Of a DNA stretch of 64,000 nucleotides, positions 10,510-25,220 are shown piece by piece. How positions within the stretch are numbered: the stretch's first letter is position 1; each line of letters starts with the position of its first letter. The stretch covers positions 64,001-128,000 of the forward strand of contig JBEKSS010000001.1 in the NCBI GenBank assembly GCA_049516875.1, in the 5' to 3' direction. The translations under genes were made by a program, and so were the position numbers. This stretch comes from Candidatus Bathyarchaeia archaeon. Its GTDB lineage: Archaea > Thermoproteota > Bathyarchaeia > Bathyarchaeales > Bathycorpusculaceae. The notes under the pieces were generated by a model, which worked only from the letters and a program-made list of their open reading frames with translations, ran no database searches and was not told where the DNA came from.

Positions 10510-10528
10510 AACCAAAGCAGACCACGCC

Positions 10529-10564
10529 CTTCTTTTCGGCGCCTATTTTTCCCATTTTTCATTT
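10529..10564 (+). terminator. Oligo-T archaeal terminator after EF-2
   Basis: Several T-runs directly after the stop codon. Confidence 0.45.
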
Positions 10565-10618
10565 AATCTTCAGCAAGCTTTATTGATTTTCACAGTCATA
10601 GGACTCTGATGAATTATC

Positions 10619-11224
10619 ATGATACTTGGCATTTGCGGGAGTCCAAGAAAACAGGCGACTGAGCACGTTTTAGGAGAAGCCTTGAACATATTGGAAAAAA
10701 TGGGTTTTGAAACAGAACTCTTCACGGTCAGAGGCAAGAACATCGGGTTCTGTCAGCACTGTGACTACTGCTTGAGAAACAAGGAGTGCAAGCTGAAGGA
10801 CGACATGTACATCCTTTATCCATTGCTCAGAAAGACGGAGGCGCTGGTGATAGCGACGCCAGTTTACAACGGCGGAGTGAGCGCTCAGACAAAAACCGTA
10901 ATGGATAGGTGCAGGGCTCTGTTTGCCGATGACAGGAACGTGTTGAGGTATAAAGCTGGCATGGCCATCGCAGTCGGCGGGGACAGAGCTGGAGGACAGG
11001 AGTTGGCAATTCAGCAGATCATGACTTTCTACGTCTTGAACGGCGTCATTCCTGTCAGCGGCGGTCCATTCGGAGCAAACTTGGGAGCAACTTTTTGGTC
11101 CAAGGACACTTTGAAAGATGTGAAACAGGATGAAGAAGGATTCAAGACTTTGAAAAAGACTGTGAAGAGATTCTCTGACCTTGTGAAACATAATGAGAGT
11201 AAGAAAAGAGCTCAAAATGTGTGA
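10619..11224 (+). CDS. Iron-sulfur flavoprotein (Isf / flavodoxin family)
   Basis: GSPR, CxxCxxCx5C (CQHCDYCLRNKEC), ATPVY. Confidence 0.88.
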   Translation: MILGICGSPRKQATEHVLGEALNILEKMGFETELFTVRGKNIGFCQHCDYCLRNKECKLKDDMYILYPLLRKTEALVIATPVYNGGVSAQTKTVMDRCRALFADDRNVLRYKAGMAIAVGGDRAGGQELAIQQIMTFYVLNGVIPVSGGPFGANLGATFWSKDTLKDVKQDEEGFKTLKKTVKRFSDLVKHNESKKRAQNV

Positions 11225-11823
11225 TTATGACCGAAGAGTTGGCAAGAGCTGAGAAGAAGAGGAAAGTTGCGTGGGGAATCACGGGCAGCGGAGACAGATT
11301 GCCCGAAACAATCGGCACTATGAAAAAGATGAAAGAAGAGTATCATAATGAGGTCGATGTAAGAGTTTTTCTTTCGAAGGCAGGAGAACAGGTCGTCAAA
11401 TGGTATAGGCTTTATGACCAGTTGAAACAGCATTTTGAAAAGGTCTGTGTTGAACTTAACTCTAACTCGCCGTTTCTTGCTGGTGACCTGGAACTCGGGA
11501 AATTTGAATTCTTGTTGATTGCTCCCGCGACGTCGAACACCGTGGCAAAAATTGCGGCAGGAATAACTGACACATTGCTCTGCAACTCAGCAATCATGGC
11601 TTTGAAAGGCTTCCTTCCAGTCTACATCATGCCCAGCGATTACAAGGAAGGAACAGTGGTCACAAGGCTTCCCAACGGAAAGGATCTCAAGCTGAGAATA
11701 AGGAGAGAAGACGCAGAAAATACAAGAAAGCTCTCCCTTATGGAAAATATGTTCGTGCTTGAAAAACCCGAAGACATCTGTGAGGTTTTCAGGAAGCATT
11801 TCAACACGAAAAAGCAGAAATGA
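11221..11823 (+). CDS. afpA: Archaeoflavoprotein AfpA (HFCD flavoprotein family)
   Basis: KVAWGITGSG, IAPATSNTVAKIAAGITDTL. Confidence 0.75.
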   Translation: MIMTEELARAEKKRKVAWGITGSGDRLPETIGTMKKMKEEYHNEVDVRVFLSKAGEQVVKWYRLYDQLKQHFEKVCVELNSNSPFLAGDLELGKFEFLLIAPATSNTVAKIAAGITDTLLCNSAIMALKGFLPVYIMPSDYKEGTVVTRLPNGKDLKLRIRREDAENTRKLSLMENMFVLEKPEDICEVFRKHFNTKKQK

Positions 11824-11832
11824 GAGCTGAGC

Positions 11833-12111
11833 GTGAGACCAATGAACTTTGGACTGCTCATCGTTCCACTGGTTGCTGGGATGCTGTTTGGCTACTTCTT
11901 GCGTGAAAAGAGGAGGGTCAATCTTGGCAAACTCACGTTTGGAATAATCTTGGTATTGATATTTTCCCTTGGTTTTGGCATAGGCTCAAACAGTGAATTG
12001 CTGAATTCGCTGCCCGAGGTCGGCTTAAGCGCCGTCGTGATTGCTTCGCTCGCCATAGTGTTCAGCGTCATCCTTGTCAAAGCAGTTAAAAGAACGGCTG
12101 GTCTAGAATGA
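11833..12111 (+). CDS. LysO (DUF340) family exporter, small N-terminal part
   Basis: 3 TM helices, LIFSLGFGIGSN; overlaps next gene (ATGA). Confidence 0.7.
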   Translation: MRPMNFGLLIVPLVAGMLFGYFLREKRRVNLGKLTFGIILVLIFSLGFGIGSNSELLNSLPEVGLSAVVIASLAIVFSVILVKAVKRTAGLE

Positions 12112-12716
12112 TAAAATACATCTTAGCTACGTTACTGCTTGGAGGAGTCGCAGGCTATCTGGACGCGAATTGGGCGAGTGTCGTCAATAGTGCTTGGGTT
12201 TCCGATTATTTGCTGAATGCCTCACTCATGCTGCTGTTGTTTGTTATGGGAGTAGCCCTTGCTATGGACAAGGACTCCATTGCGAAGATAAGGCTGAGAG
12301 GACTCCGGATCTTGATTGTTCCCTTAGCAATTGCGTTGGGCACCATTCTTGGCGGTGTGGTCAGCGCGCTGATACTTGGCATTAACGTGGTTGCGACGAC
12401 CGCGGTAAGCGCAGGGTATGGCTGGTACACGTTGACAGGCCCGCTCGTGGGCCAGATTTTCGGAGCAAAGTGGGGAGCACTCGGCTTTGCCGCGAACTTC
12501 CTGAGAGAACTGTTGACCATAATCACCGTTTCTTTGATGGTTAAAGTTGACAAGTACGCGCCAACTGCATCAGGCGGCGCAACAGCCATGGACACAACAC
12601 TGCCAATCATCGTGCGTTACTGCGGCTCTGACACGCTGATCACAGCGTTTTCAAGCGGCTTTGTACTAACCATGATAGCTCCTTTCACAATAATGGCAAT
12701 AGCCTCGCTAGGCTGA
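12108..12716 (+). CDS. LysO (DUF340) family exporter
   Basis: GYGWYTL, ANFLRE, GGATAMDTTLP motifs. Confidence 0.88.
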   Translation: MIKYILATLLLGGVAGYLDANWASVVNSAWVSDYLLNASLMLLLFVMGVALAMDKDSIAKIRLRGLRILIVPLAIALGTILGGVVSALILGINVVATTAVSAGYGWYTLTGPLVGQIFGAKWGALGFAANFLRELLTIITVSLMVKVDKYAPTASGGATAMDTTLPIIVRYCGSDTLITAFSSGFVLTMIAPFTIMAIASLG

Positions 12717-13040
12717 GTTCCCTCCCAGACACCGTTAACTTATTCTTCATGATGTTATGATTCGCATCGAGGAAATTGGTCTAGTGACTCGGTGAATCTG
12801 GCAGGTGTTTTTGATTGTTGTGCTATCTTCTAGCGCGCATGCTTGTTCCTAAATTCGTTTGCGACATATCTCGTACTTCTCTCTTCATAGTACGTTCCAT
12901 TAGAGAGGCACACAACTCAACCCTGCCACACATTAAGAAAGGAATTTAGGAAATCCATTCCCATGAAGTCGAAGGAACAATTTCAGTCTTCTAGTGTCCC
13001 CGCTTATTATAAATACTAGTTATAGCAAGGAATACTAGGG

Positions 13041-13382
13041 ATGTTTTTGACCAGATTCTTGGCATTGTGGCATGAGAACCCGTTAGCACCATGGCCTAAG
13101 GATCCCGCTGAGCTTTCAAAATTGAGAGAAAAAATGTGGGACGGTATAGACAACCTCCTGAAGAAGGGCGAAATCAAAGAGTTCGGCTTCTTTCTGGACG
13201 GAACATCAGGATACGCAATTGGCGAAAAAGATTCAGAAACTACTTTCAGAAACATAAGCATGTTCTTGCCCTACTACGTTTCGAGCGTACATGAAATAAT
13301 ACCCTACGAGAAAGGCAAGGAAATCTTGGGGACTCTCTGGAAAGCTCAATCGAAGATGTTGCACGGGCAAAGTCAACGATAG
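13041..13382 (+). CDS. Hypothetical protein (DUF3303/muconolactone-isomerase-like fold possible)
   Basis: 113-aa ORF behind TATA-like TTATAAA at ~13008; GEIKEFGFF...GYAI pattern. Confidence 0.65.
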   Translation: MFLTRFLALWHENPLAPWPKDPAELSKLREKMWDGIDNLLKKGEIKEFGFFLDGTSGYAIGEKDSETTFRNISMFLPYYVSSVHEIIPYEKGKEILGTLWKAQSKMLHGQSQR

Positions 13383-13601
13383 CTGTCATCCGCAGACGTG
13401 ACTAGTCAAACAAATCTCATCTCTCTTTTTCTATAACCTGATCTTGTTGCTTTATTCCAGCATAGGAATAAGCCGAGCACTTCAAGATTCGATGAGAAAA
13501 GAAACCTTGAAACAGATGAGACTAGAGCGTGCGCTCTTCTGCGACCTTTTCTGAAGTTCATCTTTAACGCGTTGTGGCTTTGAGTTTTGCAATAGATTGA
13601 T

Positions 13602-13850
13602 TCAGAAGTTTCCGCGAGCGCGAGCAAGTTTGTACTTTCTATCTGATTCGTCGATTGAGTGATCGCGATCGATGGACGCTTGCTTGATATAGTTGTGTTC
13701 GCTTAGGTAGGCCATCACGATTGATCTGACTATTTCTGCGTCTTCTGTTCCAAAGCCTTTCAATGACCGGATAATATTCATCTGGTCTTCGTCGAAAGTC
13801 ACATTAACTGATTTGTGCGAGTTTGCGCTTTGATCAATCGCATTTGTCAT
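13602..13850 (-). CDS. Putative ribbon-helix-helix (CopG-like) DNA-binding protein
   Basis: SVNVTF beta strand followed by GTEDAEIVRSIVMAYL helix. Confidence 0.6.
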   Translation of the reverse strand: MTNAIDQSANSHKSVNVTFDEDQMNIIRSLKGFGTEDAEIVRSIVMAYLSEHNYIKQASIDRDHSIDESDRKYKLARARGNF

Positions 13851-14016
13851 CTATTCTTTCATCTCCATGCTTTTTCATGTATTCTTTGATAGCCCTGGTC
13901 GTTTCTTCGCTTACTCTCCGGCTTGATCCGTGCTTCTGAATGACAAAGAGCAACCATTGTTTCCAAGTGCCTTCGTCCATGTTTACGCTGGTCTTCTTTT
14001 TCGGCATGTCGGTCAT
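13834..14016 (-). CDS. Putative ribbon-helix-helix DNA-binding protein (60 aa)
   Basis: C-terminal part of the 228-aa ORF: KKKTSVNMDEGTWKQW...SEETTRAIKEYM; TATA (TTATAAA on minus) ~20 bp upstream of ATG 14016. Confidence 0.65.
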   Translation of the reverse strand: MTDMPKKKTSVNMDEGTWKQWLLFVIQKHGSSRRVSEETTRAIKEYMKKHGDERIDDKCD

Positions 14017-14145
14017 GTTTACCGTTATACCTTTATAAGTCTGCCCTTTTATGGCTTGATGAAGCATAAAATGTGAATGGGCTATTGCCAACAGGTTTAT
14101 TTTGGAAAAGACACTATTGACGATTGAAGGGTGAGGTGACAAAAC

Positions 14146-14259
14146 ATGGGTGGAGGAAGGAATACACGTAGAAAAGTCGTCGAGAGCGCTCGCCGTGACA
14201 AAGCGAAGGGTCATCAAACGAGAAGAGCTCGCGGGGGAAAGAAACAGAAGAGAAGGTAG
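14146..14259 (+). CDS. Small very basic protein (37 aa)
   Basis: SD GAGGTGA at 14133-14139; MGGGRNTRRKVVESARRDKAKGHQTRRARGGKKQKRR*. Confidence 0.55.
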   Translation: MGGGRNTRRKVVESARRDKAKGHQTRRARGGKKQKRR

Positions 14260-14410
14260 AGAAGCGATCTTGGGCAGCTCATCCTTGTAAGGTACGCTTA
14301 CGATGTATATATGAGGAAAGGCACGCCGATAAGTTATTGCAATATTCTGCTTTTGCTTAGAAATGGCATGTTTTGCCTCAGAGGTTACAAACACATAAAA
14401 AATAAGAAGG

Positions 14411-14806
14411 TTGTCTGGTAGAAACCATTCCACATTTAACATAGCAGCGGAAATTCTGAGAGAGTTGCGGGAACCAACTGGCGTTACGAATACCATATCC
14501 AATTGTAATATGAGCTTCAAACAGTCAGGGTATTACTTGAGTTTCATGAAGTCAAGCGATATTATCCAGACAGACGTAATAACGGGAAGAGTGAAGTATT
14601 GTAGAACAGAAGCTGGACAGAAGTTTCTAGAAACCTATGACAAGATGATTCTGTTACTAGATCCTGGTTTTTTTCCCGCGCTGCCCAATGTAACAACGAG
14701 CACGCGCTGCAACACGATGGTTGGTTGGGGTAAAGTTTTATCCCCAAACCCAAAAAAAGAAGTATATACCATTTTTAGCCATTTTAGGGACAAGCCAGCG
14801 CGCTAA
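14411..14806 (+). CDS. Winged helix-turn-helix regulator (archaeal HTH_45-like); tail reads through repeat site 1
   Basis: IAAEIL...TNTISNCNMS...YL...YCRTEAGQKFLETY pattern. Confidence 0.7.
   Translation: MSGRNHSTFNIAAEILRELREPTGVTNTISNCNMSFKQSGYYLSFMKSSDIIQTDVITGRVKYCRTEAGQKFLETYDKMILLLDPGFFPALPNVTTSTRCNTMVGWGKVLSPNPKKEVYTIFSHFRDKPAR
14727..14745 (+). repeat. Cassette-junction core site 1
   Basis: GGGGTAAAGTTTTATCCCC; arms GGTTGGTT / AAACCCA. Confidence 0.9.
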
Positions 14807-14868
14807 CATAAAAAGCCTATATGAAAGTTTTCGATAACATATGATAGGTCTACATGGGTGTGGTGTTC

Positions 14869-15279
14869 ATGGCTGAGTCCAAGATTAGACTCTATTTGAA
14901 AAGCGTCAAAACTGTGACGGGGACCGTCGAGATAGAACGCGAGTATATACCCCGACCCCGCCTTCCGCCCACGGTAAAAACAGAACCAAAACACGAGTAC
15001 ATACTTCCCGAGGACCAACAGAAAGCAACTCAAATGGTCAAGAGTATCGCTTCCAAGTATGGTTTAAAAGTTGAAGTTGTTGATGTGACGAGGGAAAATG
15101 TCTTTCGCAGAGAAATACAGAAAGAACGAGAAAAAATAAGGATTTTCCCAACTTTGATTGTGAGTTCTGAGGAGAGAATTGAAGGCAACATAACAGAGCA
15201 GCAAGTTGAAGAGCTTCTTTCTGGCACTCATTCTTCTGATACGCACCAACGTGACAAAAGAACTATGGGTTTGGGGTAA
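14869..15279 (+). CDS. Thioredoxin-like fold hypothetical protein (no CxxC)
   Basis: VEVVDV...FPTLIV...RIEG; stop TAA lies inside site 2. Confidence 0.7.
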   Translation: MAESKIRLYLKSVKTVTGTVEIEREYIPRPRLPPTVKTEPKHEYILPEDQQKATQMVKSIASKYGLKVEVVDVTRENVFRREIQKEREKIRIFPTLIVSSEERIEGNITEQQVEELLSGTHSSDTHQRDKRTMGLG

Positions 15280-15291
15280 AGTTTTGTCTCA
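15273..15291 (+). repeat. Cassette-junction core site 2 (right half degenerate)
   Basis: GGGGTAAAGTTTTGTCTCA; left arm TGGGTTT. Confidence 0.85.
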
Positions 15292-15350
15292 TTTTCGCTC
15301 TGATGGCTGAACTCCTCTTGTCTCGCTGCTTTGAACTCTTGTTTTCTCAT

Positions 15351-15749
15351 CTAGCGCTTGTCTTCATTGACCAGTTTCCGTCTTTCCCCGCGAAGCCAAT
15401 CATAACCAATCAACCAAGTTATAAGAGCGACAGCCAGTTGAATTCCGATAAGCAGGAACCCAAATGAGCCAGACGATGTCAATAGGCTATAATCTAGAAA
15501 CAGGAAGCTTGTCCTTTCGACAAGTTCGTAAAATATGCCGAAGTATATTGGAAAGAACAGTATCAAGGACCATGCAGCTAGGGTTGCTCTCCAACTTCTT
15601 CTCAGCCTGAGCAGCACATAGGAAGTTCCCAGACCAATTAGTGCGGGAAAAAAGAACAGTGCAACATTGAACCATACGAAAATCCAGATTGCGCCTGAGC
15701 CTATACCAGCCTGACGTTCAGATAGCAGCATCAATGTTGTTATGGGCAC
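15351..15749 (-). CDS. Hypothetical membrane protein
   Basis: 132-aa ORF with 3 TM segments, possibly N-terminally truncated. Confidence 0.6.
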   Translation of the reverse strand: MPITTLMLLSERQAGIGSGAIWIFVWFNVALFFFPALIGLGTSYVLLRLRRSWRATLAAWSLILFFPIYFGIFYELVERTSFLFLDYSLLTSSGSFGFLLIGIQLAVALITWLIGYDWLRGERRKLVNEDKR

Positions 15750-15832
15750 AATCGTTTCGAACCCTCTTTCTCTTCGTATGATTTCCTATTGCACCCCTTA
15801 TGACTTGTGGAAGAATCGGGATGGTGGTGGTT

Positions 15833-15851
15833 GGGGTAAAGTTTTATCCCC
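15833..15851 (+). repeat. Cassette-junction core site 3
   Basis: GGGGTAAAGTTTTATCCCC followed by AAACCAAAC and an (ACG)n tract at 15873-15893. Confidence 0.9.
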
Positions 15852-16108
15852 AAACCAAACATTTTTTGCAGTGACGACGGACGACGACGAACGCATAGCG
15901 ATTTACTGAGGAGTTCTAGCGCGCTCTAGTGAAACAAATAGAGATGCGCCGATATTATTCAGGTTCTTGATTAGAAGGCGTACCGTGCACAAGAATTCTT
16001 TTGCAAATTAAGGGGAAAGGAACCCTTTGTGCACGGCACATCCTAAAAGGATTAAATGATACAACCAATTTAAGCCTTGTTCACACAAAACCTTCATGAA
16101 ACCCTCAA

Positions 16109-16330
16109 ATGTGTGCTAGATAGCGAAAACTCGTTTCTTTTGAAAGATACGGATGTATAGCGCGCGCTAAAGACGGAAAGAAAGTTTCTGTTGTTGTTAA
16201 GAAGACTAGATACCTTGCAAATCTTGAAGAACTTCGAAAGGTTCTTGATGGTAGAAAAAGCTATACTTGCATTCTTGGACCTTCTGAAACAAAGAAAACT
16301 GAGGAAGTGAATGTAAAAAATGAGAGATAA
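16109..16330 (+). pseudogene. Small basic ORF with in-frame TAG at codon 5
   Basis: MCAR*RKLVSFERYGCIARAKDGKKVSVVVKKTRYLANLEELRKVLDGRKSY...; its stop overlaps the start of 16320..16520. Confidence 0.4.
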
Positions 16331-16520
16331 GAAACATAGAAGGAAACGTGTTAAGACTATTAATCTTGACACCTTCACAGGTCATAGGCTACTGTATTGG
16401 ATTGGAATGCAACGTAACAGTCTAGAGGTTAAGAGGTTTATCGCTGAGTATTTTAGAAGGAAATTTCCAGAGGATTCTTTCTGGATTCCAATTTTGAAGA
16501 GGAAAGGTTTAATCAGTTGA
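16320..16520 (+). CDS. Small basic hypothetical protein
   Basis: 66-aa ORF, GAGG upstream, coupled to the preceding ORF. Confidence 0.5.
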   Translation: MRDKKHRRKRVKTINLDTFTGHRLLYWIGMQRNSLEVKRFIAEYFRRKFPEDSFWIPILKRKGLIS

Positions 16521-16742
16521 GCAAAAACAGGAATAGTCAGCAGGAGAGAGACACATGAAAAACTGTGACACTTGTCGCCATTACAAAGAGCATAATTGGA
16601 GACTTTGCCGTAAAAGAGATTATCCGCTTCATTGTTGGGAAGCTGAATCAGTTGAGCAAAAACAGGAATAGTCAACAAAGGTATTACGACCGTACAGAAG
16701 GAAATTTCCAGAGGATTCTTTCTGGATTCCAATTTTGAAGAG
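16455..16742. repeat. Nested direct repeats A(47 bp)-B(29 bp)...B-A
   Basis: 16455-16501 = 16696-16742 and 16511-16539 = 16646-16674, both exact. Confidence 0.9.
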
Positions 16743-16810
16743 AAGAGGTTTGATCTGGTCGTTTCGTCGTCGTCAGTCGTTTTTGTTTCATTTGATTCGT
16801 TTGGGTTTTG

Positions 16811-16826
16811 GGGGTAAAGTTTTATC
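16811..16826 (+). repeat. Cassette-junction core site 4
   Basis: GGGGTAAAGTTTTATC; 16801-16825 is the exact reverse complement of 20543-20567. Confidence 0.9.
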
Positions 16827-17030
16827 AAACCCAACCCAAACCCATTTACGCTCTCAACTATCCTCACTCTCACTTACACTCACTCAGCGCGCGCTAGTAT
16901 TTGGTTGAGCGGATCAATTTTGGAATAATAATTGGTCGATGCAGCTAGTACCGTGAGTCAAATTTAAATCAACTCGAAATAAACACTGGTTGAGTAAGGA
17001 GCGTTCCATTTGACAATCAGGTGAGAAAAC

Positions 17031-17762
17031 ATGATCGACTCATTATTCCATCTCTCATTAGGTGAGGGAACATTAGTCGGCTTTTCGGCAGGTATCTTAT
17101 GCGTGCTTCTAAGCTATCTACTTATAATCTTCAGAAAGAAACGAATTGCTCGATTTTTCTTCCGCGATATGATAACCATTGTTGGTCTAGGTGTTATATT
17201 GCCGGTATTGTGGGTAAAGGCAAACGGTCTCTCTTTCAATGAATTCGGGTTGCCTGGAGAAAATTGGCTATGGGCTACATTTGCAAACATGATATTGGCG
17301 TTTTCATTGGCCACGATTTTCTATTTTGAAGCGAAGAAAAAGGGTCAGAGACCTGTTTTTTCTGGCAAATATGGAACGATTTTCTATTTGACGATAGGGG
17401 TGCTTTTTGAGACTTTGTTCTTCTATAGCTTCTTGAGACAGCTTTTTGAGCAGACCTTTGGCATAATCCCCGCGCTTTTGCTGACTTCGGTCTTTTACAG
17501 CTTGCATCACATTGGCTTAGAGGAACAAATGAAGGGCACAACGCCCGCTCAGGAGTTGAGAAAACTCTTTTTTGTAGGTCTTCTTTATTCCACCACATTC
17601 AGAATTTTCAACTCTGCTCTCGCAATTTTCCCATTTTTCATTGGTGTCGGAGTGATTTCTGATCTGATCGTTGAAAAGCAAAGTGAGCCTCTTTCGTGGA
17701 AAATCGCTCTTCTATCATTTTTCCTAATGATAGCAAGCGCGCTAATCATAATCAACCTTTGA
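17031..17762 (+). CDS. CPBP (CAAX/Abi) family intramembrane protease-like protein
   Basis: Multi-TM; FETLFF and FYSLHH resemble degenerate EExxFR / FxxxH motifs; SD AGGTGA. Confidence 0.75.
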   Translation: MIDSLFHLSLGEGTLVGFSAGILCVLLSYLLIIFRKKRIARFFFRDMITIVGLGVILPVLWVKANGLSFNEFGLPGENWLWATFANMILAFSLATIFYFEAKKKGQRPVFSGKYGTIFYLTIGVLFETLFFYSFLRQLFEQTFGIIPALLLTSVFYSLHHIGLEEQMKGTTPAQELRKLFFVGLLYSTTFRIFNSALAIFPFFIGVGVISDLIVEKQSEPLSWKIALLSFFLMIASALIIINL

Positions 17763-17953
17763 TCAAAAGAAAAGTGAACGTCTATTGGCGCGCGCTCTGT
17801 TATGAGGGGTACATTTTTGTGCTTTTCTGACCCCTCGTTGCATCAACTCACTATCCTATCCTTATTCTGTTCCAGTGGTATCCAGATGTGTCCTGAATCA
17901 GGTGTCCAGTCTTTAGCCTCCCATTGGAAGCATATGGATAGTTGTCCGTTAAC

Positions 17954-18019
17954 CGTCGTCCGTCGTGGTCGTCGTCGTGGTTCGTGGTCGTCGTCCGTCC
18001 GTCGTCCGTCGTCGTCCGT
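17954..18019. repeat. Imperfect (CGT)n/(CCGT)n tract next to site 5
   Basis: CGTCGTCCGTCGTGGTCGTCGTCGT... running directly into GGTTGGTTGG. Confidence 0.85.
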
Positions 18020-18027
18020 GGTTGGTT

Positions 18028-18042
18028 GGATAAAACTTTACC
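18028..18042 (-). repeat. Cassette-junction core site 5 (inverted)
   Basis: GGATAAAACTTTACC; right arm TCCTTCCTTCC. Confidence 0.88.
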
Positions 18043-18076
18043 TCCTTCCTTCCGTCAGTGCGCGCTTTCTTTGAAA

Positions 18077-18760
18077 TTATGGTTGAGAGCTTAGAATTTT
18101 TCGTATATGTTGAGCGATTCTGTCGTAGGCCTCGAAGGCTTCCCGGGTTGGAAACGCCTTTCTCCCCACAATCCCGTCGTACTTTACGGGAATCCCACCA
18201 ATCACGATGGTTGTGATTGGTGAAATTACAGGCATTATCCCCACATATTGATCCTTCTTGTAAGGAGTTACCATGAGGTTTGGCGATCCAAGTTCAAGCA
18301 GCATATTCTTCAGTTCCGAGTCTGCGTTCAAAAGCTGCGCCAGTTCTCCGCCCTCCCAATTGTAATCGACGATTTCGCCGGTGGGGAAGCCTTTCTTGAT
18401 CTGTTTGGCCTCCGCCTTAAGTTGGTTCTCCAGGTTTCCCACATTTGCCCTTACCACATAGTTATACCTGTAGACCAGGTGACCTGGGCCGCCTGAGACC
18501 CCACCACCTGCGCCGATCCTGGATACCTCTACTAAGTCGATGTTTCGGCCTTCGACCTTGACACAACCCAGCGGAGGAAGGTTTTCCATGGTATAATAGA
18601 TATGACTGGTTCGAGAGTGATGTATGGCTTCGGGGCTCTTGAAGTCCAACACTGTTGCTTCTACGCCGATCTGTCGAAGATGCTCACACAACTCGTTTAT
18701 CAGGCCAACTTCGCGGGTGCGCGCCTCGATCGCTCCCCTTATCTTCTTAAAAAAACTCAT
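18077..18760 (-). CDS. Hypothetical protein
   Basis: Long ORF; start trimmed to MSFFKK, GGAGGGG upstream. Confidence 0.75.
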   Translation of the reverse strand: MSFFKKIRGAIEARTREVGLINELCEHLRQIGVEATVLDFKSPEAIHHSRTSHIYYTMENLPPLGCVKVEGRNIDLVEVSRIGAGGGVSGGPGHLVYRYNYVVRANVGNLENQLKAEAKQIKKGFPTGEIVDYNWEGGELAQLLNADSELKNMLLELGSPNLMVTPYKKDQYVGIMPVISPITTIVIGGIPVKYDGIVGRKAFPTREAFEAYDRIAQHIRKILSSQP

Positions 18761-18862
18761 CTGCAACCCCTCCACTTCAATCAATAGTTAACCGTTCTTG
18801 TAAATTAGACTTTTTCTTACTCGTCTTTTTCTTTGAAGAATCTTCCATGTTCTCTCCACCTC

Positions 18863-19285
18863 CTAGTGAAGTGCTTTGATATCTCCTTTCCTCTGAGAAC
18901 CACAATTAAAGCAGGTCTTGTTCTCTAACTCGTTCAGACAATCACAGTATTCGCACTTCCAGAAAGTCTTATTTCCAAGGACGGTAGCTTTAGTAGTTTC
19001 TTGGTTTGCAGTCATCTTCCCTTTCAATTCATTTTCACAAGCAAAGCATATTCCTGTTCCCCATTCGGGATGTTTCTTCCACCATGCCTCAGGACCCGTC
19101 CATCCATTCGGAGAACTTTCTGGCACATAGCTTCCAAATGCTCTTTGGTTGGGAAGTTTTATTCCACAGACCAAACAATGAGAGCAACAAGTTTGACAGT
19201 AGTTCTTTCCTCTATTTCCTGAACCGCTAAATCTGTAAAGTTTCTTACATCTCTCACAAGTCTTCTTTTCAAACATCTCATTCAC
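18863..19285 (-). CDS. Cys-rich multi-zinc-finger protein with C-terminal RanBP2-like finger
   Basis: Six CxxC pairs; WKCEYCDCLNELENKTCFNCG. Confidence 0.7.
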   Translation of the reverse strand: MNEMFEKKTCERCKKLYRFSGSGNRGKNYCQTCCSHCLVCGIKLPNQRAFGSYVPESSPNGWTGPEAWWKKHPEWGTGICFACENELKGKMTANQETTKATVLGNKTFWKCEYCDCLNELENKTCFNCGSQRKGDIKALH

Positions 19286-19294
19286 CTCTTAATG

Positions 19295-19471
19295 TTAGGT
19301 ATGGCTCTCGGCACATGCCGATATTATTCCAGCAAGTGCAAGAAACAATGCACCACACAGGAGACCGAGAGAAACATTAGTGTCTCCCATGAGATAGGAA
19401 ATAGCTCTCGCGCGCGCGCCGTAACCACCGCCATTCTTTTCATGCAGTAACACGTTTTCACAAGTGGACAT
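19295..19471 (-). CDS. Small single-TM hypothetical protein (58 aa)
   Basis: MSTCENV...LGLLCGALFLALAGIISAC...; GTGAGG SD and CTTATAAG TATA-like box upstream. Confidence 0.4.
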   Translation of the reverse strand: MSTCENVLLHEKNGGGYGARARAISYLMGDTNVSLGLLCGALFLALAGIISACAESHT

Positions 19472-19626
19472 AGATAGTTCCTCACTTGCTACAATTTCTG
19501 ATTGAAGCTTAGCACTTATAAGACTTCAGAAGCCTGAATCAATTCAATTACTTCAACCAAGTTATTGGTTCATGGTAGTGGGCTAAACTTAACGCGCGCT
19601 CAGTGCAATTCAAACCGCACATTTAT

Positions 19627-19946
19627 CTAATTTCTTTGCCAGAAATGCTTCTTCTTGGCTTGTTCCTGCTGTTTGGACGCGATGGGTTCTTCGCGCTGTG
19701 TCGGTTCGTTTGCCTTTTCTTTCTTAACCTCGATTTCTTCACTGACCTCTTTGACGGCTTCTCTCACAGCCCTCAGCTTTATCTCTTTTATTAGGCTCAC
19801 ACCTTTACCCATGATTACGCCACCCGCATATATGGAATAGCAGAAGCGCCTCTGAAAAGAATGGAGATGCCAAAATAGGGGGGAATAATCACAACTATAA
19901 GTCCAATTGCCAGCAATGCATATCCGACAATTTTGTGAGACTCCAT
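19627..19946 (-). pseudogene. Frameshifted or internally deleted membrane protein
   Basis: MESHKIVGYALLAIGLIVVII... continues in another frame as YAGGVIMGKGVSLIKEIKL...; the 320-bp span is not a multiple of 3. Confidence 0.55.
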
Positions 19947-20542
19947 ATTAAAATCCCTCGCTTGATATGCACTAATTAGTTCACTTGTATTGATTAGTTT
20001 TATGGACTATTAATATACATTATGAATGCAACGCGCGTTATCTATGGCGAAGAGTTCGCATTGGTTTGAGGACTGCTCTTCGCAGCCAAGTCGCGACTGT
20101 CTGTCTTGTGAGCTTCATGTGTTCCTTTAAGTCGCCTACACTCAGCACAGTAGCCCAGCTTGTCTATGCTCTCGTTGTGAGCTCTGAGTTGGGCGTGGAT
20201 GGTTGCAGCGGAGCGGTCGAGTGCGCGCGCGGTGTAGTACGGTTTTCTGTATGTGTATGATTTTGTTTAGCTGTTTCTATTTCTAGTTTCTCTGTATGCT
20301 GGGGTTTAAGTGTACGTATAGCGTACTGTACGATTTTTCTGGGTGTTTTGTGTTAGTGTTGTAGCGTGTTCTTGGGTGTTTCTGTTGTTTGTTCCTAATG
20401 TTTTCTGTTCTGGCAATAATACATACAATAATAGCGAAAGACGTGAAACACACAATGGCAGACATACCAAAACCAGATAAGATACAAACCAAGCGCGTGG
20501 AGCTTAGCGTCGTCGTTCGTCGTCGTGCGTGGAAGGAAGGAA

Positions 20543-20558
20543 ATAAAACTTTACCCCC
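20543..20558 (-). repeat. Cassette-junction core site 6 (inverted)
   Basis: ATAAAACTTTACCCCC; left arm GGAAGGAAGGA preceded by (CGT)n at 20508-20530. Confidence 0.9.
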
Positions 20559-20632
20559 AAAACCCAAGTCTTAAATATGCCCGAATTGGACTGATGACAA
20601 GTTGCGATACGTGGAATAGGCAGTGTTGCTTC

Positions 20633-21385
20633 TTGCCAAAGAAAGACTCTGTGATGAGACAGTGGGACGACGCGGCAGAATCCTGGGTTGATTTTGTGAG
20701 GCAGGGTAAGGACTATTACAGGGATGAGCTTAACAACCCTGCAGCTTTCAGACTGATAGGAAACGTGAAAGGTCAACTTGTGCTGGACTTGGCCTGCGGC
20801 GAAGGATACAACACCCGAATACTGGCCCGAAAAGGTGCCAGAGTAACAGGGGCAGACTTTTCGGCGAGACTGATAGGACTTGCGAGAATCGAGGAGGCCA
20901 AAGAGAGGCTGGGCATAGACTACCGTGTTTCAGATGCTGCTGACCTGTCTGAGTTTTCAGGTAATTGCTTTGACCTTGTGACTTGTTTCATGGCGTTGCA
21001 GGATATCAAGAACTACGAGAGAGCGGTATCTGAAGTGGCAAGAGTGCTGAAGAACAGAGGCCGGTTCGTGTTTTCAATTCCTCATCCGTGTTTCGAAATG
21101 ATAGTTGACAAAGGAAACAGAATAAGCACAACTACGAGATATTTTGGAGCTGCAGAGGACCATATTCGTTGGAAAATGGAGAGACTCCTGAAACCATTCG
21201 AGACTACAAGTTTTCACAGGACATTAACCGACTATTTCAGTGTGCTCTATAAGAACAGGCTTCTCATAAGAAGGCTCGTGGAGCCACAGCCGACAAAGCA
21301 AGGGATCAAGAAACATCCACCTCTCAAAGAAGTTCTTCTCAGACCACAATCAGTAGTAATAGAAGCAGTAAAAGAGCCAATCTGA
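20633..21385 (+). CDS. Class I SAM-dependent methyltransferase
   Basis: VLDLACGEG, FDLV, RVLKNRG; start trimmed to a TTG downstream of site 6. Confidence 0.9.
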   Translation: MPKKDSVMRQWDDAAESWVDFVRQGKDYYRDELNNPAAFRLIGNVKGQLVLDLACGEGYNTRILARKGARVTGADFSARLIGLARIEEAKERLGIDYRVSDAADLSEFSGNCFDLVTCFMALQDIKNYERAVSEVARVLKNRGRFVFSIPHPCFEMIVDKGNRISTTTRYFGAAEDHIRWKMERLLKPFETTSFHRTLTDYFSVLYKNRLLIRRLVEPQPTKQGIKKHPPLKEVLLRPQSVVIEAVKEPI

Positions 21386-21404
21386 GCAGACCTCTAAGGA
21401 GATT

Positions 21405-21423
21405 GGGGCAAAGTTCTATCCCC
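21405..21423 (+). repeat. Cassette-junction core site 7 (2 substitutions)
   Basis: GGGGCAAAGTTCTATCCCC, 17/19 match to consensus, 20 bp after the methyltransferase stop. Confidence 0.75.
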
Positions 21424-21590
21424 TCTTCCTCCTGACTACCACGGCGTGGGGAAGAGAACCCGCCCTGCCTGCTGTGCACCCTGCTGGGTGTCCCGTATAT
21501 GCCGCGGCATACGCAGGGAAGAAAGGCAGTATGCAAGGGGCGCGTGCGATGAAATATGCAATTCCGACAAGCAAGTTGACAGTGCCCCCC
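21421..21590. ncRNA. Candidate structured non-coding element
   Basis: GC-rich intergenic stretch with stems CTCTTCC/GGAAGAG, CTGCC/GGCAG, CCCTGC/GCAGGG and palindrome TATGCCGCGGCATA. Confidence 0.3.
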
Positions 21591-21632
21591 ACCCGCTACT
21601 CTTATAAATTCACGGTATTTTAGTAGATTTCC

Positions 21633-22418
21633 ATGCAAGCAGAAATCGGAATCATCGGAGGAACAGGCTTTTACGATCCGCAGCTTATCAACAACGGTAA
21701 GGAAACAAAGCTTGACACACCCTATGGGCCGCCTTCAGACTCGATTATTGTTGGCGAATTGAAAGGCAGAAAGGTAGCGTTTCTGCCGCGACATGGGAAG
21801 AAGCACACGATAAGGCCGACGGACGTAAATTCGAGAGCCAACATATACGCGTTGAAGGAACTGGGTGTTCAACGTATTCTGGCCCCGTCAACAGTAGGTT
21901 CTTTGAGGGAAGAGTACAAGCCTAGAGACCTTGTGTTCGTTGATCAGTTCATAGATAGGACGACAAGGCGGGAACAGTCTTTCTACACGGGCCCGAAGGT
22001 GTGCCACATTTCGGTGGCAGAGCCGATGTGTCCCGACTTGAGGAAGATTCTGACAGAAGTGGCTGAGGAAATGAAGATAAGTTATCATAAGACTGGCACC
22101 TACGTTTGTATAGAAGGCCCGAGGTTTTCAACGAAGGCCGAGTCCAAGATGTTCAGGAGGTGGGGCTCCGACGTGGTTGGTATGACAGTCGTTCCCGAGT
22201 GCGTTTTGGCTCGTGAAGCTGAGATATGTTATGCCTCGATAGCGACTGTGACTGACTATGATGTGTGGAAAGATCATCCCGTAAGTGCTGGTGAAGTTGC
22301 TAGGACTATGAAACAGAACATCGAGAAAGTTAAGAGCGTCATCATGGAAACAATTGCAAGAATGCCCAAAGAAAGGACGTGCGAGTGCAAAGACGCATTA
22401 AAAAGCGCATCGGTTTGA
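21633..22418 (+). CDS. mtnP: S-methyl-5'-thioadenosine phosphorylase
   Basis: IGIIGGTG, LPRHG, EGPRFSTKAES, VGMT, VTDYD. Confidence 0.93.
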   Translation: MQAEIGIIGGTGFYDPQLINNGKETKLDTPYGPPSDSIIVGELKGRKVAFLPRHGKKHTIRPTDVNSRANIYALKELGVQRILAPSTVGSLREEYKPRDLVFVDQFIDRTTRREQSFYTGPKVCHISVAEPMCPDLRKILTEVAEEMKISYHKTGTYVCIEGPRFSTKAESKMFRRWGSDVVGMTVVPECVLAREAEICYASIATVTDYDVWKDHPVSAGEVARTMKQNIEKVKSVIMETIARMPKERTCECKDALKSASV

Positions 22419-22442
22419 AAACGCACCATCAGTTGAAGTGAG

Positions 22443-22976
22443 GTGTCGAGTTTGGATCTGAAGTCGAAAATAAGGAGAATACCAGAGTTCAAAGGCGTCG
22501 TTTTCTGGGACATAACACCCCTTCTGAAAGACAAGGACGCCTTCAGAGAGTGCATTGAACGGATGGCAAACCACTTCAGAGGCAAGAAAATAGACTTGGT
22601 AGTTTCAAACGAAGCCAGAGGCTTCATAATAGGAGGCGCATTAGCCTACGAACTTGGAGTTGGCTTTGTTCCAATCAGAAAGAAAGGCAAACTGCCCTCA
22701 AAAGTAGTGAACCTAACGTATAACAAGGAATACGAATCAGACACGATTGAGATTCACGAGGATTCCATTGAACCCGGCCAAAATGTTTTGCTCGTCGATG
22801 ATCTGCTGGCAACAGGAGGGACGATAAAAGCCAACGCAGAACTGGTTGAAAAGCTCGGGGGAAGAATTGTGGGCATGGGCTTTCTGATAGAACTTGAGTA
22901 TCTGCGTGGAAGAGAATTTCTGGGAGACAATTACGACATCTTCTCGATAATAAATTATGAAACGACCGCAGGATAG
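22443..22976 (+). CDS. apt: Adenine phosphoribosyltransferase
   Basis: FWDITPLL, EARGF, RKKGKLP, VDDLLATGGT. Confidence 0.95.
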   Translation: MSSLDLKSKIRRIPEFKGVVFWDITPLLKDKDAFRECIERMANHFRGKKIDLVVSNEARGFIIGGALAYELGVGFVPIRKKGKLPSKVVNLTYNKEYESDTIEIHEDSIEPGQNVLLVDDLLATGGTIKANAELVEKLGGRIVGMGFLIELEYLRGREFLGDNYDIFSIINYETTAG

Positions 22977-23378
22977 ACTTCAAGGCTACTTATCTAGCGC
23001 GAGATGCATTCCTGTCTTTTCACAGCTACTACGTGAAGGTGGCTTCCTGTACCCGCAACATAAGGCTCATCGTAGATTCTATGCAATATTTTGGCCAACT
23101 TTTTCTTTTCCGCGCGCTAGCGTGTTGCTAAATTCGGTGAATTGGCATGAACTTGTTCGATCACGCTTGGGCTTGGACAGACACCCATGATATGGTATGT
23201 AGAAGTTTGATGAAAACGCAACCATGCTTGGAAGGCAAGCAGAAATTAACACAAACAATAGGATTTAGCAACGCCCTAGTGCGCGTCAGTAGCCTGTTGT
23301 TTGCGGCTCCTCTCACGTAAGCACGCACCGACATTCTTATCTGAAAGTCCCGTTGTAACAATCAAGCGGAAAGGCCAA

Positions 23379-23783
23379 ATGAAGAAGAAAAGACTGGTCA
23401 CCCTTTCACTATCAATACTTATCATCGGCGCCGTAGTTGCAGCCTTCATCGCCATGAAGAATGCTCCTGCGCAGACTGGCGTATGGCAACAATCTGCCCA
23501 GATTTCAGGCACAGGACGGCAAGACACCACAGAATTCGTAATGAACAATCAGTGGCGCATAATCTGGACAATTCAGAACCAAACTACGAGCCTGTTCCTT
23601 GTCGCTGTCTACGCCAAGAATGGCACTGGATACTCCCCCATTGCAGACGCTGACGAATCAGACACAAACGCGACACAAGGCATCCTCCCAGTGGTTTACA
23701 CGGGCGGATTTGTTATCCGAGTGGTTGCATCAGACGACACTGAATGGACTCTGCACATCCAAGAATTCGTCAAACCAACCTAA
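23379..23783 (+). CDS. Membrane-anchored/secreted hypothetical protein
   Basis: MKKKR + hydrophobic anchor, beta-rich domain. Confidence 0.7.
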   Translation: MKKKRLVTLSLSILIIGAVVAAFIAMKNAPAQTGVWQQSAQISGTGRQDTTEFVMNNQWRIIWTIQNQTTSLFLVAVYAKNGTGYSPIADADESDTNATQGILPVVYTGGFVIRVVASDDTEWTLHIQEFVKPT

Positions 23784-23851
23784 TGCGCATGTGTCGAAAG
23801 CCGAATATGAGCCCCGGCGCGCGTCGGTTCGCAAAGTGTGTGTGCGTTTCT

Positions 23852-23951
23852 TGGTGCGGTCGCCGGGATTTGAACCCGGGATCACAAGCTTGGAAGGCTT
23901 ACACTCGCCTTTGAAGGCTTTGTGTCCTAAACCAGTCTAGACGACGACCGC
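23852..23951 (-). tRNA. tRNA-Gly(TCC) with ~21-nt non-canonical intron and encoded CCA
   Basis: Reverse complement GCGGTCG...CA[intron]AGC CT TCC AA GCTTG...GGTTCAAATCC CGGCGACCGC ACCA. Confidence 0.92.
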
Positions 23952-24006
23952 CCTTTTTTCTGCAGTAAAATAGCATAGGGGGTATAGATAAGATTTCTTT
24001 CTCGGC

Positions 24007-24666
24007 CTACCGCGGTTTCTCGTCCGGCTTGAAGAGTTTCTTCTCATGTTTGGATCTCGGTTTGAAACTGCCGCGATATTTCGGCATTGAAGTCTTCTGT
24101 CGTTCCAAATTCCTTATTCTGGCATAAAGTCTTGACACCTTAGTTTTTGAAGGCGTTTTGGGTTTAGGAATGCGCACATGGACAGGCGTGAATGGTTTCT
24201 TGATCTCGCTGCTAAGGCCCCTTTTTTTCCTCGGCATTTCTTTCACTTTTTTGAAGACGACGCAGCCTTCTTTCAGGTTCACTTCTCGCACCTCCCAGCC
24301 TGCGTCCAGCCAGCCTTTAGCATGCGGGCTTCCAGGCAGGTTGTCCCACCATTCTTCGCTACGATAAGCGCTCATAGGCAAGTTCTCACCGATTATTCCA
24401 TCCATGCGAGCGAAGCTAAGCTTAACCGTACTCGTAAAAGCACCTCGGAACCTCAGATAGCTTGTCAGTCCACCGTATCTGGACACGCTTTTCGGCGCAA
24501 CTATCCTCCGCGCACAATTCAGGCAAAGCAACTTCGTCGGGTCGCCTGTAGAGACATCGGGAACCATACAGTCCCTGCAGTAGAGTCGCCCACACCTCTG
24601 ACAACGTCTAAGATAACTGTACGAGAGAACCCTGCCGCACAATCCGCACTCGTCCTTGAAAGGCAT
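24007..24666 (-). CDS. Zinc-finger hypothetical protein with basic tail
   Basis: Four CxxC pairs, then LSFARMDGIIG...WW.N...WLDAGW domain. Confidence 0.8.
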   Translation of the reverse strand: MPFKDECGLCGRVLSYSYLRRCQRCGRLYCRDCMVPDVSTGDPTKLLCLNCARRIVAPKSVSRYGGLTSYLRFRGAFTSTVKLSFARMDGIIGENLPMSAYRSEEWWDNLPGSPHAKGWLDAGWEVREVNLKEGCVVFKKVKEMPRKKRGLSSEIKKPFTPVHVRIPKPKTPSKTKVSRLYARIRNLERQKTSMPKYRGSFKPRSKHEKKLFKPDEKPR

Positions 24667-24806
24667 TCCAATCACTAGTGACTCTCAAACGCTACGTATC
24701 AGTTAGGCGGAAGCTTTTGATATAGACTTCGCCAATTCTGTAAGAACATCGAGGCTTATCGCAAGACTTATAGACACCAAGCCATGAAAACAAATCGAGG
24801 GCTTTA

Positions 24807-25166
24807 TTGCTTTTCAGTGAGTATCTGCATGAGAAAGCGGAAGAGTCACGACACAATGAAACCATCGGCTACCTAATAATCATCACTGGCTCAGTGTTCT
24901 TCGTGGGCGGCCTGCTTGAAACAATAATAACAGCCATATTAGGTGGTGCAAATCCAGACTGGTTCCTGATATTCCCTTATCACTTCACGCCCAATCCGGA
25001 CAGCCTCCTCGGCACATCTCTGACCTCCGTGGGCATTGTCCTAATCTTTCTCGGAATAGCCTTGGCAATACACTATGCGAGAGAGAGATCATGGTACATG
25101 AGGGAGCTTCACAGGGCACATTCTGTGGAAGAACAGAAACTGAGAACAGAAAAGAAAAACGAGTGA
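24807..25166 (+). CDS. Hypothetical membrane protein (2 TM)
   Basis: 119-aa ORF, TTG start. Confidence 0.75.
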   Translation: MLFSEYLHEKAEESRHNETIGYLIIITGSVFFVGGLLETIITAILGGANPDWFLIFPYHFTPNPDSLLGTSLTSVGIVLIFLGIALAIHYARERSWYMRELHRAHSVEEQKLRTEKKNE

Positions 25167-25220
25167 AGGCAGACTAGCTGAAGCAAGAGAAGGGGAAGTC
25201 TAGACTCTTCGATAAGAGTG

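Follow-up and report, generated by a model that had tools for sequence, protein, structure and literature searches.

The stretch analyzed here, referred to as the window, comprises 64 kb of the genome of a Candidatus Bathyarchaeia archaeon (C1:64001-128000 of a genome of 2.43 Mb in 20 contigs, estimated to be 97.5% complete) and harbors a strain-specific island in which seven copies of a short, near-palindromic element separate small, mostly single-gene modules (Table 1). Homology between loci of this kind ends at copies of the element more often than expected for random positions, and we tentatively attribute the arrangement to site-specific exchange of modules by a recombinase encoded elsewhere in the genome.

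The island and its repeat element

The island lies between a conserved gene for a 202-aa protein (12108-12716) and the purine-nucleoside-phosphorylase gene (21633-22418). In the related genomes G003 and G004, these two genes abut, ~50 nt apart, and the island is missing; G001, G002, and G021 have other spacers in its place, and an empty-site joint (12711/12719->21587) is found in a metagenome contig of run X16. The GC content of the island is 0.41 to 0.45 versus 0.47 for the genome. A second island of ~8 kb (C1:353250-361257) holds two copies of the element and has its right end at a GCGCGCGC tract. Separately, G002 (L003, G002:C2:151600-155900) carries an unrelated 3.7-kb insert in the same spacer as our island, with the promoter's TTATAAATT duplicated at both ends, and this duplication therefore points to an independent mobile-element insertion at the same hotspot.

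Table 1. Features of the island, numbered from the first nucleotide of the window
Feature	Coordinates	Strand	Description
Strain-specific island	12723-21586		8.9 kb; holds all seven sites
Travelling block	12995-14751		1.76 kb; 113-aa gene, two small minus-strand genes, 46-aa basic open reading frame, winged-helix gene; right end at core 1
Winged-helix gene (HTH_45)	14411-14806	+	Pfam 4.2e-10, residues 7-80; open frame reads through core 1
Core copy 1	14727-14743	+	Exact 17-mer; arms ggttggtt / ccaaacccaaa
Module 1 gene, thioredoxin/glutaredoxin-like	14854-15279	+	Pfam 19.1 bits, below the cut-off of 22.9
Core copy 2	15273-15289	+	Two mismatches; overlaps the stop of the thioredoxin-like gene, between convergent genes
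Module 2 gene, 132-aa hydrophobic protein	15351-15749	-	No family hits
Core copy 3	15833-15849	+	Exact; followed by a (GACGAC)n tract, then GCGCGC
Core copy 4	16811-16827	+	One mismatch
Module 4 gene, weakly Rce1/CPBP-like membrane protein	17031-17762	+	Pfam E 0.014, 16.1 bits, below the cut-off of 22.4
Conserved non-coding block, repeated TATCC words	17800-17990		Joined to core 5 via a variable (CGT)n tract
Core copy 5	18028-18044	-	One mismatch; inverted
Module 5 genes, 235-aa protein and 140-aa Cys-rich protein	18077-19285	-	No family above Pfam cut-off
Sub-module within module 5	19608-20036		(CG)3 tracts at bounds; 97% identical copy at C7:19000-19433
Core copy 6	20541-20557	-	Two mismatches; inverted
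Module 6 gene, S-adenosylmethionine (SAM)-dependent methyltransferase	20654-21385	+	Pfam Methyltransf_11 6e-23; PADLOC mad2-like 1.2e-20
Core copy 7	21405-21421	+	Two mismatches inside core; arms missing

The first-pass annotation had described the repeat as a 19-mer with seven copies in the window, five forward and two inverted. A scan of the 64-kb window allowing up to three mismatches reproduces this on the same strands, with seven matches at 14727-21421 (exact at 14727 and 15833, two to three mismatches at 15273, 16811, and 21405 and, on the minus strand, at 18026 and 20539) and none elsewhere in the window; the chance expectation is zero, as none of 100 dinucleotide shuffles of the window gave a match. 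Consecutive copies are spaced by 546, 560, 978, 1215, 2513, and 866 bp. Alignment of all genomic copies narrows the conserved unit to a directional 17-mer, GGGGTAAAGTTTTATCC, hereafter the core, the last two C's of the 19-mer being conserved at just 54 to 59%.

The core is a 7-2-7 inverted repeat (GGGTAAA GT TTTATCC) and is bordered by arms, ~12 nt upstream that are G/T-rich (GGTTTGG or GGTTGG type) and ~10 nt downstream that are C/A-rich (CCAAACC type). The 17-bp core and its degenerate arms together form a quasi-palindromic element of ~40 bp, past which the flanks are unrelated between copies. Low-complexity tracts lie outside the arms, G-rich upstream and C-rich downstream (GT/AC, GA/CT, GACGAC), and a GCGCGC tract is frequently found 15 to 100 nt from the core. 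At offsets 1 and 6 from the core center, essentially all copies have G in the left half and T in the right half, while offsets 2 to 5 and 7 to 9 are paired in 48 to 94% of copies; symmetric sites, in which both halves are of the same kind, are absent among the copies examined. The top strand folds better than the bottom one in 41 of the 54 copies in the genome because both asymmetric positions are G/T and able to wobble-pair, and the folding of the element is modestly better than that of shuffled sequence (mean z -1.34). The earlier statement that the motif does not have the 11-6-11 geometry of dif holds for the 19-mer alone; with its arms, the element can be read as GGTTTGGGGTA-AAGTTT-TATCCCAAACC. 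Copy 7 is probably a decayed site, given the two changes within its core and the lack of arms. A search of Rfam at E ≤ 1 over 9000-27000 returned nothing at the sites, and a reading of the element as an RNA gene was rejected.

The gene content that the first-pass annotation had assigned to the modules stands in part: the SAM methyltransferase is secure by its Pfam match, whereas the thioredoxin-like and CPBP-like assignments fall below the Pfam cut-offs and the other genes are without a family hit. The thioredoxin-like protein has six matches, the query gene counted, of which four adjoin a core. The TATCC block beside core 5 recurs beside cores in other Bathyarchaeia loci, and the 12 copies aligned contain frame-breaking indels, have the core flipped in two cases, and yield no conserved RNA fold (-3.3 kcal/mol). 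A defense island was considered and rejected, as PADLOC gave nothing but the methyltransferase-type hit.

Distribution and homology breakpoints

The genome contains 54 copies of the core (two mismatches or fewer), and these are strongly clustered, at C1 44-48 kb, in the window array, and at C1 186-188 kb, C9 86-117 kb, C14 1-25 kb, C8 0.6-3.3 kb, and other places, several of them at contig ends. Within one mismatch, the 17-mer is carried by each of the four other genomes in the genus and by 12 of 24 other family members, and a search of 16 genomes from other families of the order gave none; a reversed-pattern control gave one match in one genome and zero in the remaining genomes. When each genus is represented by one genome, 13 of 31 carry the core. 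A scan of prokaryote species representatives returned at least 114 stretches, and among the 80 matches listed, 68 have Bathyarchaeota or Bathyarchaeia in their titles and the remaining 12 are single hits, as chance would give. In IMG/VR, 11 contigs carry an exact core, three of them with two to three copies, and single hits there may be chance; the metagenome runs examined (Logan contigs) are peat and wetland samples, which marks the organism as an archaeon of peat. Judged by these scans, the element is specific to Bathyarchaeia, with arrays in several genera.

Sites occur in runs. This genome has 24 adjacent site pairs no more than 3 kb apart versus ~3 expected for 54 random sites in 2.43 Mb (Poisson estimate), and runs of three to six sites are found in other Bathyarchaeia. 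Neighboring sites point the same way in 17 of 24 pairs in this genome and in 59 of the 85 found at other loci (~70%). In 77 of 105 intervals, a single open reading frame (ORF) takes up 45% or more of the space between two sites, and between same-oriented sites the gene runs with the sites in 29 cases and against them in 27, which agrees with the first-pass description of mostly one gene per interval in either orientation. The genes flanking the 54 genomic sites are convergent at 18, divergent at 12, and tandem at 22, with two sites at contig ends lacking a gene on one side. The median gap between site and gene is ~93 nt on the start side, where TATA-like boxes are found and gaps range from 10 to more than 1000 nt, and ~70 nt on the stop side. 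With neither distance nor orientation to genes fixed, the site is therefore intergenic but without a fixed relation to promoters or terminators. The same variability speaks against the alternative that the first-pass annotation had itself set against its proposal, namely a motif at a fixed distance from promoters.

Ends of homology coincide with the sites. Among 114 core-bearing loci, 41 of 396 internal homology ends (stretches of at least 250 bp at 75% identity or more) lie within 15 nt of a core versus 5.0 for random positions; when only ends outside ORFs are counted, the figures are 28 of 183 versus 9.1 (~3-fold), the maximum in 300 simulations being 18. For 225 cores both flanks are available; 127 of these have a homologue elsewhere for one flank or both, 30 of them for both, and in no case among the 30 do the two homologous flanks lie side by side elsewhere. 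The first-pass annotation had staked its proposal on synteny breakpoints falling at the sites, and this is what the comparison gives. Insertion of a core into an otherwise conserved spacer was not found besides self-copies, and target-site duplications are absent at the junctions examined.

Many of these flanks are 92 to 97% identical between species, and modules of 93 to 97% identity stand in differing contexts. The travelling block is 93% identical to a stretch of G004:C4 and 90% to one of G002:C1, both in other genomic contexts; homology with the former stops 7 nt past core 1, and the latter copy ends earlier, without the winged-helix gene, next to a core in the opposite orientation. A 0.64-kb cassette at L102:4380-5061 matches L057:1405-2078 with 94 to 96% identity, with cores bounding both copies and unrelated outer flanks, and module C9:116502-117444 matches G002:C4:4725-5740 with 96 to 99% identity amid different neighbors. 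Some cassettes are flanked by inverted sites. The window array itself varies between strains: metagenome contigs L169 and L170 are 98.4 to 99.8% identical to the window on both sides of a 1.4-kb segment, 14755-16159, that is replaced by a different 1.2 kb. With the replacement, modules 1 and 2 are lost along with cores 2 and 3 and a portion of module 3, while core 4 is kept in L169; identity continues through core 1 and its arm, stops at 14754, and resumes at the GCGCGCGC tract at 16160. In contig 21 of run X17, the methyltransferase module is present from 20563 to 21420 and is followed by different sequence. Taken together, these alignments support a shuffling of modules at the sites.

Several further elements deserve mention. 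Cas1 genes and fragments recur within a few kilobases of cores and at island edges (G000:C9:118082-119107; C1:353171-353659; L029, L127), and a Cas1-like fragment (L169:5650-6060) is found within the segment that replaces modules 1 and 2. A 55-nt element at 14751-14805 (consensus roughly AAGAATAAAWACC, with a 30-nt conserved stretch and GCGCGC) has at least seven further copies in the genome and many in relatives; most copies are not beside a core, and the ATG found within 8 to 50 nt downstream of several gives it the look of a portable promoter or leader. A 123-bp repeat at 12830-12952, which starts with GCGCGC, has its last 110 bp 100% identical at C1:54007-54116 and C4:42329-42438 and ~7 partial copies; a 3-kb contig of run X17 has 33 nt in its place, a behavior like that of a miniature inverted-repeat transposable element (MITE). 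The 235-bp non-coding stretch 15930-16164 has GCGCGC on both sides and contains a long stem (CCGTGCACAA...TTGTGCACGG); it is 80 to 86% conserved in G001, G003, and G021 (71% at a second place in G021), with no listed core near those places, and may be an RNA gene, with no match in Rfam. The stretches 16455-16542 and 16646-16755 form a local tandem duplication of 95 to 97% identity over two small ORFs, one of them Cys-rich. Outside the island, a 174-bp element (23112-23285) is bounded by GCGCGC-containing inverted repeats and has many copies of 68 to 90% identity in the genus (more than 15 in G001) and no second copy in this genome. Finally, a weak match to the tRNA clan on the minus strand at 23852-23951 (transfer-messenger RNA model, 25 bits, E 8e-7; not called by ARAGORN) may be an intron-containing tRNA gene and adjoins a small variable stretch, 22986-23850.

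Candidate recombinases and known systems

A search with the tyrosine-recombinase domain gave ten matches in the genome, grouped into about nine loci, and no recombinase gene in the window; any enzyme would therefore act in trans. The serine recombinase model (PF00239) has no match in the genome, and neither has the Y1 (IS200/IS605-type HUH) transposase model (PF01797), the genome being 97.5% complete and other HUH families not having been searched. Clustering of the ORFs from 136 core-bearing stretches identifies the commonest neighbor families as Ig-like surface proteins (28), GNAT acetyltransferases (17), tyrosine recombinases (16), and ABC ATPases (10), followed by CBS/KaiC-like proteins (9), winged-helix regulators (8), and Cas1 (6). 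The tyrosine recombinases are Xer-like and, with 16 ORFs in 12 of the 136 loci, constitute the sole recombinases seen among the common protein families near the sites; no transposase is present in the ten common neighbor clusters scanned. A MITE or the end of a cut-and-paste transposon was rejected on this last result, on the absence of duplications at the junctions examined, and on the 30 flank pairs never adjacent elsewhere.

Eight recombinases were scanned against family models, three of them core-adjacent in other loci and five from this genome. The archaeal XerA model is the best family hit, at 88 to 103 bits for six and ~45 bits for two against a cut-off of 220, and the integron-integrase model TIGR02249 matches six at 51 to 71 bits against a cut-off of 265, with those on C10 and C5 unmatched at E ≤ 1e-5. 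The closest solved relatives are XerA (5hxy, E 5e-12) and IntI4. An alignment of seven members contains invariant Arg, Lys, Arg-His, His, and Tyr columns, interpreted here as the catalytic residues, and all members have in common a C-terminal tail that ends in FRKRK or FRKRQ. At four loci, the recombinase stop codon is 0 to 147 nt from a core, in one fixed relative orientation and at the edge of a run of sites. Of the co-occurring recombinases that the first-pass annotation proposed to look for, an Xer-like family does lie near cores, but it is also present in core-free genomes, and serine and Y1 genes were not matched. As a separate observation, isolated C-terminal fragments (~residues 185-297) and stop-interrupted Xer-like copies occur in G008, G009, G019, G021-G024, G041, G044, G045, and at G000:C1:230906-231181, and G021 has 22 matches; these many fragments and interrupted copies suggest frequent decay or splitting of Xer-like recombinase genes.

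The dif (pdif) modules of Acinetobacter Rep_3 plasmids, moved by XerC/XerD, are described as small accessory modules, in many cases a lone gene or a toxin-antitoxin pair, that have their own promoters, are bounded by a short conserved site, occur in many combinations and both orientations with the enzyme encoded elsewhere, and exchange singly by what is explained as two crossovers at the flanking sites (PMC13141974, PMC12907356, PMC7399989). The array studied here likewise consists of small accessory modules in either orientation, with own promoters, between short conserved sites, any enzyme being encoded elsewhere, and on a permissive reading its element with arms can be taken as 11-6-11. The two differ in that pdif modules have inversely oriented flanking sites, with C and D modules alternating, whereas ~70% of adjacent sites here are direct repeats; in that the host here is an archaeal chromosome and not a plasmid; in that no protein here reaches the XerA family cut-off; and in that the core here flips relative to its flank. 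Recombination of pdif modules has been demonstrated by experiment, whereas for the present array it is proposed from sequence comparison.

The array resembles integron arrays in its tandem single-gene units, imperfect palindromic site, mostly single site orientation, and strain-variable DNA. In attC sites, structure is conserved and sequence is variable; the site here, in contrast, is 40 bp with invariant sequence. The attC R/L boxes (RYYYAAC / GTTRRRY) are absent in and around the core at all seven sites, read directly with 60 to 80 nt of flank, and the candidate heptamers GTTGGTT, GTTGGGG, GTTTGGG, and GTTTTAT all violate the box consensus. Integron cassettes are promoterless, in one orientation, and served by a common promoter, whereas the genes here have either orientation and their own promoters, and IntI was not found among the eight tyrosine recombinases scanned. 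Integron arrays without an adjacent integrase are common and are reported in Archaea (PMC9668308). An integron was nevertheless rejected because attC boxes and IntI are lacking and the cassettes are not promoterless, and the first-pass view that the core is not attC is upheld.

Repetitive extragenic palindromic (REP) sequences and bacterial interspersed mosaic elements (BIMEs) are short, imperfect, intergenic palindromes in tens of clustered copies, often at gene 3' ends or between convergent genes. Our element is likewise a short, imperfect intergenic palindrome in tens of clustered copies; unlike them, it comes with no REP-associated tyrosine transposase (RAYT) or Y1 transposase found, its copies are concentrated in flexible islands, and its flanks are never conserved together. 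A REP/RAYT system or a hairpin handled by a Y1 enzyme was rejected, PF01797 being unmatched in the genome and other HUH families not searched, and so was a serine-recombinase crossover site of the 12-2-12 type, PF00239 being unmatched, though that geometry would be compatible with the 7-2-7 core. Conserved TTCC and GAA motifs are described for archaeal origin recognition boxes, or ORBs (PMC1904270). A replication origin was rejected, as across its 12 copies the block next to core 5 retains TTCCA and lacks a conserved GAA and orc1/cdc6 is not adjacent; the Cdc6_C matches at C3 98981-99259 and C2 7592-7864 are ~80 kb and ~7 kb from their nearest cores.

Weighing the explanations

The explanation that we place first, while giving it somewhat less than an even chance, is a dif-module-like system driven in trans by Xer-like tyrosine recombinases. 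The element would mark where small modules are exchanged, most of them comprising one gene and all with a promoter of their own, and island modules would be gained, lost, and replaced via recombination at or beside the sites. The most likely agent would be an Xer-like tyrosine recombinase encoded elsewhere in the genome, and its presumed substrate a 28-bp site composed of two 11-bp inverted arms around the asymmetric 6-bp center AAGTTT, a conserved asymmetric center with looser arms being typical of tyrosine-recombinase sites (dif geometry as given in PMC2958812 and PMC13141974). Modules would be exchanged through a double crossover involving two sites, or would integrate and excise between direct repeats of the site. 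The first-pass proposal of gene capture and shuffling by a recombinase in trans is supported in part: it gains from the change of gene content at the sites and the lack of a recombinase gene in the window, and loses from the fact that no recombination event was caught, that the island ends are not at sites, and that (GC)n junctions and flipped cores occur.

These and several other observations argue against a system that is simply site-specific. The metagenome contigs yielded no recombination product, and the core-to-core joints found there rest on 20 to 39 nt of repeat and may be repeat artefacts or come from other organisms. Compared with the same flank, the core has the same orientation in 113 cases and is flipped in 45 (45/158, 28%), and 116 of 274 homologous flanks (42%) are without a core, counts that are not independent; one such flip separates module C9:116502-117444 from its G002 copy. 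Neither flips nor core-free flanks are predicted by simple conservative site-specific recombination. A central crossover of antiparallel sites would yield symmetric sites, and as none is seen, the flips call for another process, for instance template switching within the arms or exchange there. Four metagenome contigs that lack any core carry the CPBP-like unit (16997-17791), three of them (L171-L173) at 89% identity and L174 at 78%. Past offset 9 the symmetry of the arms is one of composition and not position by position, and the 11-6-11 reading is permissive because the outer arm positions are complementary in just 24 to 43% of copies. Conservation within the 17-mer is partly built in, the sites having been gathered by similarity to it, and the positions of sites relative to genes depend on the calls of a crude in-house ORF scorer. 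On the enzyme side, the recombinase family is present in 29 of 31 genus representatives versus 13 of 31 for cores, and the copy numbers of the two do not rise and fall together; a phyletic link between recombinase and site was dropped as an argument for want of correlation. In this genome, the orthologue of a core-adjacent integrase (77% identical) has no core beside it, and four of the nine recombinase loci are within 5 kb of a core.

A further point of this kind is that (GC)3-5 tracts form a second and commoner class of junction, also at island and module ends. Homology ends fall at (GC)n tracts in 29 of 396 cases versus 8.8 expected; the 3' homology end of the CPBP-like unit is within the (GC)4 tract 17788-17795, and one breakpoint of the strain variant and one end of module C9:116502 are at (GC)n tracts. 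The tracts are lineage-specific yet separable from the core, as (GC)5 is frequent in the core-free G018 and rare in the core-bearing G023 and G024. In the window, examples lie at 14797, 15919, 16160, 16888, 17788, 18059, 19593, and 20032. GCGCGC occurs 1412 times in the genome, 3.4 times expectation, with 75% of occurrences in the non-coding 20% of the genome and a frequency peak 0 to 60 nt after stop codons; (GC)5 counts are 18 to 99 in the five genomes of the genus, 78 in G021, 75 in G018, 9 in G030, and 0 to 2 in the other 33 relatives.

The strongest rival, which we regard as a lesser though real possibility, is a selfish or structural palindromic repeat (REP-like, or a fragile palindrome) without a dedicated recombinase and copied along with neighboring DNA, whose hairpin and slippage-prone tracts would stall replication and lead to template switching, short-homology recombination, and inversion, with shuffling as a by-product. 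The strand bias in folding suits it, as do arms and adjoining (CGT)n, (CT)n, and (CA)n tracts that vary in length among homologous copies, cores that flip in place between inverted arms as quasi-palindrome template switching would give, the many homologous flanks without a core, the lack of an enzyme that tracks the site, and breakpoints at (GC)n, a second and simpler repeat. Against such a repeat stand the modest z score of its fold and the Y1/RAYT-type transposase not found in the genome. An exact 17-mer with two asymmetric positions would be hard to maintain across genera unless selected by a protein that reads it, ~70% of adjacent pairs are co-oriented, and the 30 sites whose flanks are never adjacent elsewhere are unlike a repeat dropped into stable spacers.

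Two regulatory functions are less likely than either the dif-like system or the palindromic repeat. We consider it improbable that the element serves as an operator bound by a dimeric protein (such as a regulator of the winged-helix type, a protein that silences acquired genes, or one that marks domain boundaries) and is inherited with accessory units, breakpoints coinciding with it only because it sits at unit ends. A 7-2-7 inverted repeat such as the core is the usual site shape for a dimeric helix-turn-helix protein, the site is always between genes, and winged-helix genes are among the commonest neighbors (the 8 ORFs are a median of 137 nt from the core), one of them overlapping core 1; the wide range of start-codon distances and the mixed orientations do not fit an operator, a homodimer site leaves the invariant asymmetric positions unexplained, and regulation accounts neither for flanks that are never together elsewhere nor for the excess of homology ends within 15 nt. 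A promoter (TFB recognition element, BRE, plus TATA box) or a transcription terminator common to accessory genes has very little to recommend it: GTAAAG followed by TTTTAT in the core may resemble an archaeal BRE/TATA pair, TTTTAT is enriched 3.2-fold upstream of genes in the genome with a peak near -45, and many genes end 0 to 90 nt from a site, but the usual TATA words of the genome differ (TAAATA, TTAAAT, and TTATAT, at about -35 to -60), site-adjacent genes have their own TATA-like boxes (e.g., at 14762 ahead of the gene at 14854), gene direction relative to the site is nearly evenly split, and the hairpin is not followed by a U-run on either strand. Promoter as the main function was accordingly rejected for want of a fixed distance and orientation to genes, and terminator for want of the trailing U-run.

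Returning to the dif-like system, a broader version of it is that Bathyarchaeia own a gene-capture platform unrelated to integrons, in which an Xer-like clade with a conserved C-terminal extension (...FRKRK) would act on a 28-bp site with an AAGTTT spacer, some sites being backed by the TATCC block, and would stack, swap, and spread own-promoter cassettes between genera; this is an attractive but doubtful proposition. No member of the Bathyarchaeia is in culture, although they rank with the most abundant archaea of peat and sediments, and their acquisition of accessory genes is largely unexplained. We found no description of the motif or of such arrays in the literature, supplementary files not covered, and a Bathyarchaeia virus paper makes no mention of them. 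Going by PMC9668308, every cassette system reported to date from archaea is a canonical integron, and the present array hints at a gene-shuffling system in archaea other than the integron. If the element is a conserved site of exchange between species, it would offer a concrete mechanism for genome plasticity in Bathyarchaeia, a sequence tag by which their flexible gene pool could be traced in metagenomes, and a candidate recombinase/site pair for archaeal genetic tools; a true gene-capture platform would give archaeal chromosomes a counterpart to dif modules and provide a path for horizontal transfer among some of the most abundant sediment archaea. Even under an enzyme-free reading, the array would be a clear case of a palindromic repeat structuring archaeal genomic islands.

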